UHGV virus genome: UHGV-0159506
Reading direction: 5' to 3' (one strand)
Origin: a virus
DNA: 17,827 nucleotides
The notes beneath the pieces were generated by a model. That model was given only the letters and a program-made list of their open reading frames with translations. It had not been told where the DNA came from and searched no databases. The first letter of the stretch is position 1. Each line of letters starts with the position of its first letter. Position numbers and translations under genes: made by a program. Below are positions 11,062 through 14,241 of this stretch, in pieces.

Positions 11062-12426
11062 TTAATAATCCTCTTGCCAGTCAGCACCAGCATAGTTATC
11101 AAACCGTGAGTATTGGCCGTTAAAAGCCAATCTCACCGTGCCAATTGGGCCATTTCGTTGCTTTCCGATAATTACCTCGGCAATGCCCTTCATTTCGCTA
11201 TCCGGGTGATAAACTTCGTCGCGATACAGAAACATGATCAGGTCTGCGTCCTGCTCAATTGCTCCTGATTCACGTAAATCTGAATTTACCGGTCGTTTGT
11301 CCGCACGCTGTTCAAGCGATCGATTAAGTTGTGACAATGCCACCACCGGTACTTGTAATTCCTTCGCCAACGCCTTCAGTGAGCGAGAAATCTCGGCAAT
11401 TTCCAGCGTTCGGTTATCTTGCAGCTCGGGGACGCGCATAAGTTGCAGGTAGTCGATCATAATCATGCTCAAACCACCATTTTCTTTATAAACACGACGA
11501 GCGCGGGAACGAAGCTCTGTAGGTGTCAGGGCGCTTGAGTCATCAATAAAAATATTCTGCTTGTCCAACAGAATACCCATTGCGCCAGAAACCCGCGCCC
11601 AATCCTCGTCGTTAAGTTGCCCTGTTCGAATACGAGTCTGATCAACGCGTGCAAGAGAAGCCAGTGAGCGCATCATCAGCTGGTGGCTCGGCATCTCAAG
11701 GCTAAAAACCAATACGGGCTTATCGTTACGGACTGCGGCATTTTCGACGAGATTCATCGCAAACGTGGTCTTCCCCATAGATGGGCGGGCGGCGACAATG
11801 ATGAGATCGGACGGCTGAAGCCCTGCCGTCTTCTTATTGAGATCGGTAAATCCCGTATCAAGCCCCGTTACACCATCATGTGGTCGCTGAAACAACTCTT
11901 CTATGCGAGATACCGTTGCATCGAGAATGCTGGCGATATCTTTTGGACCACTACCGCTCTTTTGTCGTTTTTCAGCTATTTCAAAAACGCGGCGCTCGGC
12001 CATATCCAGCAATTCATTGCTGCCCCTGCCATCCTGCGCATATCCAGCTTCGGCTATTTCATTTGCGACGGAAATCATTTCACGAACAACCGCGCGTTCA
12101 CGAACGATATCCGCATAAGCACAAATATTTGCCGCGCTGGGCGTGTTCTTTGACATCTCCGCAAGGTACGCAAAACCACCGGCGCGTTCTAATTTACCGT
12201 TCTGTTCAAGTGCTTCAGCAAGTGTTATCAAATCAATCGGTTTGCCATGACTTAATAACCTCTCCATCTCACTGAAAATTTCACGATGAGCACTGGTATA
12301 AAAATCATCAGCAACTATACGATCTGCAACTTCATCCCAGCGGCAGTTATCAAGCATTAAGCCACCAAGTACAGCTTGTTCTGCACTAAGGGAATTTGGC
12401 ATGGATTCAAGAGGGGATGCAGACAT
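11062..12426 (-). CDS. ban: DnaB-family replicative helicase (phage P1 Ban-like)
   Basis: Track ORF of 456 aa, co-linear and highly similar to E. coli DnaB as I recall it (AEQAVLGGLMLDN, SDLIIVAARPSMGKTTFAMN, RNGPIGTVRLAFNGQYSRFDNY). The likely start is the ATG at 12424-12426, preceded by GGTGGAG. The context (tRNA-Ile, TerB-like gene, tRNA-Thr/Asn, methyltransferase) matches my recollection of the P1 ban region. Confidence 0.9.
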   Translation of the reverse strand: MSASPLESMPNSLSAEQAVLGGLMLDNCRWDEVADRIVADDFYTSAHREIFSEMERLLSHGKPIDLITLAEALEQNGKLERAGGFAYLAEMSKNTPSAANICAYADIVRERAVVREMISVANEIAEAGYAQDGRGSNELLDMAERRVFEIAEKRQKSGSGPKDIASILDATVSRIEELFQRPHDGVTGLDTGFTDLNKKTAGLQPSDLIIVAARPSMGKTTFAMNLVENAAVRNDKPVLVFSLEMPSHQLMMRSLASLARVDQTRIRTGQLNDEDWARVSGAMGILLDKQNIFIDDSSALTPTELRSRARRVYKENGGLSMIMIDYLQLMRVPELQDNRTLEIAEISRSLKALAKELQVPVVALSQLNRSLEQRADKRPVNSDLRESGAIEQDADLIMFLYRDEVYHPDSEMKGIAEVIIGKQRNGPIGTVRLAFNGQYSRFDNYAGADWQEDY

Positions 12427-12706
12427 TAGCACTCCACCCAGGCGTGCTGAATGTCAGATATAATCGGCATACTCAAATCACTCCTAACGATATGAGTCAT
12501 CACCAGAAAATCAGGATTAATTCGCCGGACTCTTCCCGGCTGTCACACCGAATCGCCAAGATGGTGAATCCGCAGTCCGACGCTATGAACGGGGCTTGCA
12601 CATTCCGGCTACCTGGTTTGTTGCCTGAGCTAGGGGAAAGGTTACCCCTTTAACGTCACCAGACCGCTAACGACGCATGTGCCAGACGCCGTGTTACAAC
12701 CAAATA

Positions 12707-12782
12707 TGGTGGCCCCTACCGGACTTGAACCGGTGACCGTGCGATTATGAGTCGCCAGCTCTAACCACTGAGCTAAAGGGCC
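12707..12782 (-). tRNA. tRNA-Ile (anticodon CAU, lysidine type; Met cannot be fully excluded), CCA encoded
   Basis: Manually folded cloverleaf: acceptor GGCCCTT/AGGGGCC, D-arm GCTC-AGTGGTTA-GAGC, anticodon loop CTCATAA, T-arm ACCGG-TTCAAGT-CCGGT. It closely resembles E. coli ileX as I recall it. Confidence 0.8.
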
Positions 12783-12785
12783 GGA

Positions 12786-12893
12786 TTACTGTTTCCTGAG
12801 TGCTTCTATGACGCCAGCAATACCGCCTACAACTATGCCAGCAATGACAACGAGAACAATTGGATGCTTGTCAGCAAAATCCCAGAAGCCCAT
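12786..12893 (-). CDS. 35-aa hydrophobic peptide, predicted single-pass membrane protein
   Basis: Not in the track (below 60 aa). Its ATG overlaps the upstream TGA (TGATG). Translation is MGFWDFADKHPIVLVVIAGIVVGGIAGVIEALRKQ. Confidence 0.4.
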   Translation of the reverse strand: MGFWDFADKHPIVLVVIAGIVVGGIAGVIEALRKQ

Positions 12894-13057
12894 CACTGAT
12901 CCTTAGAAGCTGTTTTTAATATCGGCCATACCAATGTTACAGCTACTGCCACCAACGCCCCGTCCGATAAAACTGACAGGATTGTGCTGGTGAAATCCAC
13001 CAGCACGGACAGCAAGAGAAAACCAATGGCGATTGCGATACGTGCCTTGCTTGCCAT
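12893..13057 (-). CDS. 54-aa hydrophobic peptide, predicted membrane protein
   Basis: Not in the track. Its ATG overlaps the TerB-like gene's TAA (TAATG). Translation is MASKARIAIAIGFLLLSVLVDFTSTILSVLSDGALVAVAVTLVWPILKTASKDQ. Confidence 0.45.
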   Translation of the reverse strand: MASKARIAIAIGFLLLSVLVDFTSTILSVLSDGALVAVAVTLVWPILKTASKDQ

Positions 13058-13491: not shown

Positions 13492-14241
13492 TGGTTATCC
13501 CTCAATAAAAGTGACATATTTATTAGATTGCGGTGCCGGGTTCCTCCCGGTGTCCTTTGGCTGGTTATCCACCGTGGACGGGGAAACAAGGAGAAATGAA
13601 TGGACTGATATAACCATTTCCCCGCGTGCGCTTAGCCGCATTCACCGCAACGGAAAGAGCATTCTTGGTGGACCTGTAGATTGGGATATGAACCCGTTAC
13701 AGGAGAATGCTCTTACCTTTTACGTGCTCCGTTTCGTGGAGCTAACGGCGGGTGATCGGGCCGCACCAGACTGGACTTATTTCAGCGTTATGCTCATGCC
13801 AGAGAATCAAACTGTGATGGTCGGTGCTGAACTCCGACACAGGGTTGTAGCAAGCCCCACAAAGCGCGCACTACTGTAGTTGCGGCACATCAGCCTGTGC
13901 ATTCACCACAATGTTGAGAACACTGGTTGTCACGCTGCAACGCAACATTTATTCGTAGATTGGGATATGACCCCGTTACGCCAGTGTTCTCAACGTTGTA
14001 GTGCCGGTTACGGTTCCGGCCAGGCCTCTTCCTCAACGGGGTGTTCTCCATACGGACTACCGTTTATTGGTCGTTCCTGCGGTTTATGTTGTGAAGCCAG
14101 ATGCTTATCTTCTGGTTGCTTCAAAGAGCTGCACTTCATCACAACGGTAAGAGCACTGATACGGTTGGTTTTTGCCTCCGGATCGACTTGCGTCTTGTGT
14201 GCTGGCCCGCTCATCGCCAATGCTCTTACCTGTTGTGTTGG

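Follow-up and report, generated by a model that had tools for sequence, protein, structure and literature searches.

A short leader open reading frame that may couple ribosome loading to translation of the ban helicase gene in a P1-like phage

How do ribosomes gain access to the start codon of ban, a DnaB-family replicative helicase gene, when this start codon is overlapped by the stop codon of a much smaller reading frame? We addressed this question in a 17,827-nucleotide (nt) stretch of UHGV virus genome UHGV-0159506, hereafter called the window, in which ban occupies 11062-12426 of the minus strand. An initial annotation had noticed a 14-codon upstream open reading frame (uORF) in front of the helicase gene and had suggested that, the Shine-Dalgarno (SD) sequence of the gene itself being weak, its translation may depend on this leader ORF. 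We find that the suggested dependence is supported by a predicted hairpin, by the accessibility of the two start sites, and by similar overlaps elsewhere in the operon, whereas the argument from a weak SD fails. Established directly are the anatomy of the locus, an unusually stable predicted local structure, the contrast in start accessibility, the retention of the uORF in relatives, and the non-conservation of its peptide. On this basis, we favor, with somewhat better than even confidence, a model in which the uORF couples ribosome loading to ban by opening a hairpin over the ribosome-binding site (RBS) of ban. Judging from the sequence and the predicted structure, it is plausible that ribosomes translate the uORF and that ban relies on this for its own translation.

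The region of interest, the reverse complement of 12426-12485, is AGGAGTGATTTGAGTATGCCGATTATATCTGACATTCAGCACGCCTGGGTGGAGTGCTAA. Read on the minus strand from 12485 to 12426, it consists of AGGAG-TGATTTGAGT-ATG CCG ATT ATA TCT GAC ATT CAG CAC GCC TGG GTG GAG TGC TAA. The AGGAG (12481-12485) is invariant in 18 of the 18 leader haplotypes, forms a duplex of -6.8 kcal/mol with the 3' end of 16S rRNA, and is separated by a 10-nt spacer from the ATG (12470-12468). This ATG opens the 14-codon uORF (12426-12470, including the stop codon), which encodes MPIISDIQHAWVEC, whose sequence is identical in P1, and which ends with a TAA at 12428-12426. The final A of the TAA is also the first base of the ban ATG, giving a TAATG at 12428-12424. 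Both the SD-led ATG and the stop-start overlap are thus as the initial annotation had described them, and they lie on the minus strand. Its description of the helicase SD has to be corrected, since ban possesses a GGAG (12432-12435) at a near-ideal spacing of 5 nt, with a duplex energy of -5.9 kcal/mol, and is in this respect typical of the window, where most genes have values of roughly -5 to -7 kcal/mol.

The GGAG of ban lies within a predicted hairpin at 12422-12455, built from the pairings GACAUU/AAUGUC, AGCAC/GUGCU, and CC/GG (GACAUU-c-AGCAC-g-CC-UGGGU-GG-a-GUGCU-AAUGUC, 12455-12422). Its 3' arm holds both the SD and the AUG of ban, and its 5' arm corresponds to codons 6-10 of the uORF. 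Folded alone, this hairpin reaches -17.0 kcal/mol, accounts for 74% of the ensemble, and has a z-score of -2.87, with 1 of 200 dinucleotide shuffles being as stable. The cost of opening the region from -15 to +13 is 17.1 kcal/mol for ban, compared to 10.0 kcal/mol for the uORF and 5.3-11.2 kcal/mol for 13 other gene starts, which makes the ban start the most structured of the 15 starts and places it at about the 94th percentile of 572 random window positions. Any ribosome that translates the uORF would have to melt this hairpin, whose 5' arm falls within the reading frame, before terminating exactly on the ban AUG. This hairpin is a better support for coupling than the weak-SD argument. Of 13 haplotypes, 12 keep the hairpin, with energies from -11.1 to -17.0 kcal/mol; the variants include one pair that passes from G-C to G-U to A-U, a C-G to U-G change in three sequences, and two pair-breaking changes. 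Only this local hairpin is robust; when the whole leader is folded, uncertain long-range pairings prevail and the z-score is not significant. A weak, putative hairpin further upstream (12476-12522, minus strand), in which the uORF SD (UUAGGAG) is paired with AAUCCUGA, has an energy of -9.6 kcal/mol and a z-score of -0.45, and shows a single G-U to A-U change.

We propose that the RBS of ban, although adequate in sequence, would be locked by the -17 kcal/mol hairpin, and that ribosomes would load first at the accessible AGGAG/AUG of the uORF. Translation of codons 6-10 would then unwind the 5' arm of the hairpin, and termination would occur at the UAA overlapping the ban AUG. From there, ban could be initiated in two ways: either the terminating ribosome restarts at the neighboring GGAG-5nt-AUG, or a new 30S subunit binds while the site is briefly open. 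In such a scheme, Ban output would be set by the rate of uORF initiation and by the stability of the hairpin.

The genomic setting is that of a P1-like phage or phage-plasmid. Over the 331 nt around the uORF, the identity is 100% to several E. coli plasmids, 99.4% to Salmonella phage SJ46, and about 94% to P1 and P7. The 454-codon ban product is 99.8-100% identical to the Ban protein of P1, and the identical N-terminal fragment matches PF00772 and PF03796 (Pfam), so that the downstream gene, with both the N- and C-terminal domains, is a DnaB-family helicase as the initial annotation had predicted. Ban is the classic phage analogue of DnaB. Its ATG at 12426-12424 is the start annotated in phage P1 (AF234172, 71295-72659, 454 codons) and also the dnaB start given to RefSeq plasmids by the Prokaryotic Genome Annotation Pipeline (PGAP). 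The P1 record lists Pban with its C1 operator, a dicF-like region, tRNA-Asn, tRNA-Thr, tciA, tciB, tciC, trnI, ban, and dbn, in this order, and the minus strand of the window follows the same gene order, with tRNAs at 14392-14239 and 12782-12707. The latter is a tRNA with a CAU anticodon (trnI, or tRNA-Ile2, in the P1 record), co-transcribed upstream of ban, and dbn (10064-11062, minus strand) is the cistron following ban. The feature under study is therefore the translation-initiation region of ban within the Pban operon, which comprises the dicF-like region, the tRNAs, tciABC, trnI, a 175-nt RNA element described below, the uORF, ban, and dbn. One-base stop-start overlaps occur at three further junctions of this operon, namely tciA-tciB (TAATG), tciB-tciC (TGATG), and ban-dbn (TAATG), the overlap sites lying at ~13055, ~12893, and 11058-11062 of the minus strand. 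Neither an internal promoter nor an intrinsic terminator was detected in 12200-13000, so that ban would rely on read-through from upstream.

Conservation of the uORF frame in related phages had been proposed as a check by the initial annotation. We compared plasmids from PLSDB with IMG/VR and metagenome contigs, the latter giving about 190 loci that collapse into 18 leader haplotypes. The 75 nt running from the uORF SD to codon 4 of ban occur in 434 PLSDB plasmids, essentially all of those with a P1-type Ban. The match is perfect in 369 of these plasmids, whereas 47 carry 1-3 mismatches and 18 carry 4-7. In none of the 18 leader haplotypes is the uORF affected by an indel or a premature stop, and its start and stop codons are never lost. 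The frame is thus kept in all of these relatives, but the check has little power because the P1-like Ban proteins are all at least 98.5% identical. Indeed, PLSDB contains about 434 plasmids with a Ban at this level, and the next homologues fall below 80%, with almost none between 98.5% and ~79%. Plasmid dnaB homologues at 66-78% identity were considered and set aside as uninformative, as they have full-length N-termini and occur in unrelated conjugative-plasmid contexts.

The peptide itself behaves differently from the frame. Among the substitution types observed in the uORF, 9 are nonsynonymous and 5 synonymous, with residues 10, 11, 12, and 14 varying freely (A10T, W11R/L, V12M/E/G, C14Y), and these counts show no purifying selection on the uORF amino acids. 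The peptide is most likely irrelevant in itself and, since it is not conserved, what would count, if the uORF matters, is the act of its translation.

In phage D6 and D6-like plasmids, the tRNA and the next 188 nt, which contain the RNA element, are kept, and from ~12522 onward the leader, uORF, ban, and dbn are replaced by other genes. The uORF is thus lost together with ban, which indicates that it belongs to the ban cassette. The uORF start is absent from a single contig, a metagenome-derived sequence of 42.7 kb (L058, identical to L178 and also represented by L335; IMGVR_UViG_3300045988_115882). In this contig, P1-like DNA is joined at window position 12462, inside the uORF, to about 30 kb of a Mu-like phage with gemA/mor-like genes. 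The junction is internal to the Mu-like genome and not at a phage end, the Mu-like sequence has a different continuation in a second contig (L339), and the upstream 9 kb of L058 show no P1 homology. We therefore discounted L058/L178 as a relative with a disrupted uORF, since it is probably a chimeric metagenome assembly.

Variation, counted as variable sites in a set of 77 unique P1-like sequences, is distributed very unevenly over the region. In the leader between 12530 and 12471, just 2 of 60 sites vary, and 1 of 23 in the 5' part of the uORF (12470-12448), whereas 10 of 19 vary in a hypervariable stretch (12429-12447) that includes the hairpin apex, uORF codons 8-14, and the neighborhood of the ban SD. 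By comparison, 27.5% of third-codon positions are variable over the whole of ban and 12% in its adjacent 150 nt, and any 19-nt window inside ban has at most 8 variable sites. That the upstream leader varies so little hints at constraint. Several of the apex changes recur on different backgrounds, and together they shift the energy of the ban SD from -3.9 to -10.2 kcal/mol and that of the hairpin from -17 to -9 kcal/mol. Natural haplotypes with a stronger ban SD (GGGAGGAG), with a weaker one (GGGTAGAG), and with a hairpin-breaking allele (C14Y) are all available. The hypervariability of the apex could result from the tuning of Ban dosage, from a mutational hotspot in the hairpin loop, or from escape from some factor.

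Not all of the results favor coupling, and several of those that weigh against it are also what the main competing explanation draws on. According to this explanation, the uORF is fortuitous and essentially untranslated, ban starts at its own GGAG/AUG, and the hairpin throttles the expression of a dose-sensitive helicase. We regard this as a serious but less than probable account. The ban SD is normal (-5.9 kcal/mol) and ideally spaced at 5 nt, so that some independent initiation is expected, and natural variants reach an SD strength of -10.2 kcal/mol. The 10-nt spacer of the uORF SD is at the long end of the working range in E. coli. An ATG-started uORF of at least 8 codons with an overlapping stop appears in 2.6% of 20,000 shuffles of the 120-nt leader; the arrangement is uncommon, yet by itself it is not beyond chance in a window of ~25 genes. 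Of the possible point changes, 19 of 135 (14%) would be disruptive, and finding none among the 14 observed substitution types has P ~0.12 under neutrality, so that the retention of the frame is not significant; the peptide, with its 9 nonsynonymous to 5 synonymous types, is not conserved. As for the hairpin, its substitutions are about as destabilizing as random ones (+2.1 vs +2.3 kcal/mol), covariation of both hairpins is not significant against column shuffles (234 of 500 reach the observed value), and holding the 5' arm single-stranded in a longer context only lowers the opening cost of ban from 15.1 to 11.1 kcal/mol, because alternative pairings appear. Finally, the variability of the leader (3 of 83 sites) is not significantly lower than that of the synonymous sites next to it (6 of 50; Fisher p = 0.08); we dropped leader conservation as evidence, since its P ~1e-8 against the synonymous sites of all of ban is lost against the less diverse 5' part of the gene. 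Nevertheless, a fortuitous uORF does not readily account for four other observations. Once an SD is also required, the arrangement occurs in only 0.3% of the same shuffles. The uORF start is as accessible as those of real genes (10.0 kcal/mol), and ban is the least accessible of the 15 (17.1 kcal/mol). The uORF SD, AUG, and first seven codons are almost invariant (1 of 23 sites variable) beside the hypervariable stretch, and the overlap is the same as at the other coupled junctions of the operon.

Three further explanations appear less probable still. The uORF might be translated mainly to shield the ~280-nt leader between trnI and ban from Rho-dependent termination or RNase, which is an improbable main function, though not one exclusive of coupling. 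Leader ORFs are known to counteract Rho polarity in other cases, the tRNA at 12707-12782 is separated from ban by a long and structured stretch without translation, and 12200-13000 lacks a detectable intrinsic terminator or internal promoter. However, the uORF covers only the 45 nt adjoining ban and leaves ~235 nt upstream untranslated, and the exact stop-start overlap and the hairpin geometry, both predicted by coupling, are not required for an anti-polarity role. The uORF could also be a fossil, that is, the 5' end (SD, ATG, and ~14 codons) of a full-length dnaB-like gene that suffered a frameshift and whose translation now begins at an internal ATG. Reinitiation is known to follow early termination, and the sum of 14 and 454 codons, 468, is near the 459-470 codons of plasmid dnaB homologues and the 471 amino acids of E. 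coli DnaB. We consider this origin unlikely, as none of the 706 recovered DnaB N-terminal homologues covers the first 14 residues of the frameshift-corrected query, the inspected N-termini bear no relation to MPIISDIQHAWVEC, and a short form is natural for some DnaBs of mobile elements, e.g. MSEIKSPPHSIEAEQ; DnaB N-termini are too variable for this comparison to be decisive, and such an origin would be compatible with present-day coupling. Least credible of all, in our opinion, is that the uORF is the shadow of a small protein on the plus strand, a 71-amino-acid "hypothetical protein" (WP_077632605.1). PGAP/GenBank records annotate an ORF opposite ban, corresponding to 12396-12653 of the plus strand in the window and also annotated by PGAP at loci L332 and L333 (258-473), and substitutions at 12443, 12440, and 12437 are silent in the antisense frame. 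Nevertheless, the variable stretch as a whole shows 7 nonsynonymous and 5 synonymous changes in that frame, the length of the putative protein varies by haplotype (25, 35, 52, 71, 78, and 84 amino acids) with frame-shifted C-termini, and the ORF runs antisense through the conserved RNA element, where indels are not multiples of three. In addition, the JL22 record annotates a different ORF, of 48 amino acids on the ban strand, over the RNA element. We rejected the antisense ORF as a gene on account of its unstable length and frame, and the 48-amino-acid ORF of JL22 likewise looks spurious.

The 5' part of the ban leader is occupied by a conserved, non-coding, RNA-like element of ~175 nt (12523-12700, minus strand), which we consider here as context to the uORF. 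Its core is ~95% identical in P1, P7, SJ46, and D6, and the element is ~79% identical overall in lambdoid and phiV10-like phages. Further copies were found at L001 (2516-2706), L003 (3012-3195), L228 (1508-1690), and L229 (1504-1680). The lambdoid copies are located just downstream of a cI-type repressor gene, behind a promoter-like site, and the phiV10-like copies upstream of a tRNA-Arg(TCT). Of 5426 complete E. coli genomes, 1376 contain the element, and none of these has it annotated; the element has no match in Rfam 15 even at E<=10. Among 159 unique contexts, 76 have a tRNA(CAU)/tRNA-Ile(TAT) just upstream, 22 have a tRNA-Arg(TCT) just downstream, and 61 have neither. Compensatory changes are seen in two of its 3' hairpins, one of which carries a constant, purine-rich, boxB-like loop (GGAAGAG). 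About 15 nt after the element, the lambdoid and phiV10 copies (L228 1690-1731, L229 1678-1719) show a GAGGG/GAGAG and a 9-codon mini-ORF, MEPRQSV(V/A)P. This parallels the layout in front of ban, where the element is also followed by a short ORF.

The element is widespread in E. coli prophages and P1-like plasmids, and it is a by-product of this analysis that is more intriguing than the uORF itself. Coupling is a textbook mechanism, and the hypervariable apex and the RNA-like element are the more useful leads. A bolder view, which we put forward as speculation and believe to be improbable, would make the ban leader a tunable translational switch, in which diversifying selection on the 19-nt apex resets Ban dosage or allows escape from a trans-acting factor, and in which the ~175-nt element represents a new class of cis-acting leader RNA gating the cassettes behind it, possibly via the short ORFs that follow it.

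If the coupling model is true, it adds an unannotated translated element to the very thoroughly annotated model phage P1, whose record (535 features) carries no uORF at the ban leader. It would also explain a set, low level of a probably dose-sensitive helicase and would be relevant to the cloning of ban with its native leader. The practical stakes are small, since ban was dispensable for P1 plaque formation in a CRISPR interference (CRISPRi) screen (PMC10695390). Five P1-like contigs from IMG/VR and metagenomes (L105, L155, L210, L220, and L115) have a disrupted or altered ban reading frame, the first in-frame stop falling at codons 118, 148, 231, and 379 in four of them and at codon 499 in L115, which is consistent with ban being dispensable. 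The leader and the uORF are intact in all five. Elsewhere in the operon, a sub-threshold match to the small RNA family STnc100 of Rfam (33.9 bits for a gathering score of 47, E = 7e-5) was observed at 13529-13649 of the minus strand, inside or beside the tciA region.

The arrangement at ban can be compared with several known systems. In the trp operon, trpE-trpD and trpB-trpA are coupled by termination and reinitiation at a UGAUG. The ban start shares the U(A/G)AUG overlap, which is also found at tciA-tciB, tciB-tciC, and ban-dbn. Nevertheless, the upstream cistrons in trp encode full-length functional proteins, whereas the ban uORF has 14 codons and a peptide that is not conserved. In the tap-repA genes of IncFII plasmids and the repY-repZ genes of IncI-alpha/IncB plasmids, translation of a leader ORF opens the structured RBS of a replication gene. 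As proposed for ban, the RBS is closed by structure, and the leader ORF is short and stops at or close to the start of the replication gene. Control in those plasmids is exerted by an antisense RNA encoded in cis (CopA or Inc RNA), and for repZ by a pseudoknot as well. A third case comes from the same phage family, since in the immI operon of P1 the icd and ant1 genes are coupled under control of the c4 antisense RNA. Again, translation of a small upstream ORF drives an overlapping downstream gene; the differences are that icd encodes a functional protein and that c4 RNA controls icd, whereas the ban leader matches neither the C4 family nor any other Rfam family.

Nothing in the window points to the antisense RNA that defines the tap-repA, repY-repZ, and icd-ant/c4 class. 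Promoter-like or terminator-like sites for such an RNA were found on neither strand in 12200-13000, and no sequence complementary to the hairpin apex turned up in the window, to which this search was confined. As no Rfam family matched the leader either, we rejected, within the stretches searched, control by an antisense or trans-acting RNA. An attenuator of the trpL type is not what we observe, given that there is no intrinsic terminator, that the hairpin is followed by the ban coding sequence, and that MPIISDIQHAWVEC contains no codon run.

The closest parallel is ORF27-iraD of E. coli (Park et al. 2017, mBio, PMC5574718), where a short ORF with its own SD has a stop codon overlapping the start of iraD, and where a hairpin that translation of the short ORF would disrupt sequesters the iraD SD. 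When initiation at ORF27 is abolished, or is repressed by CsrA, less iraD is translated (PMC5574718). The two systems differ in that ORF27 has 27 codons and CsrA binds GGA sites over its SD, and in that the dependence is experimental for iraD, whereas for ban it is predicted from the sequence. Full-text searches turned up no description of a ban uORF, the P1 genome paper of Lobocka et al. (2004) and the Ban study of Lemonnier et al. (2003) being outside that coverage. The ban leader shares with ORF27-iraD a short SD-led ORF, the stop-start overlap, and, by prediction, a sequestered downstream SD. It displays three sequence-level hallmarks of this class, namely the overlap, an accessible uORF SD and start, and a predicted sequestered site whose other arm lies in the uORF, and it is plausible that ban represents an apparently undescribed case of this well-known type of translational coupling.

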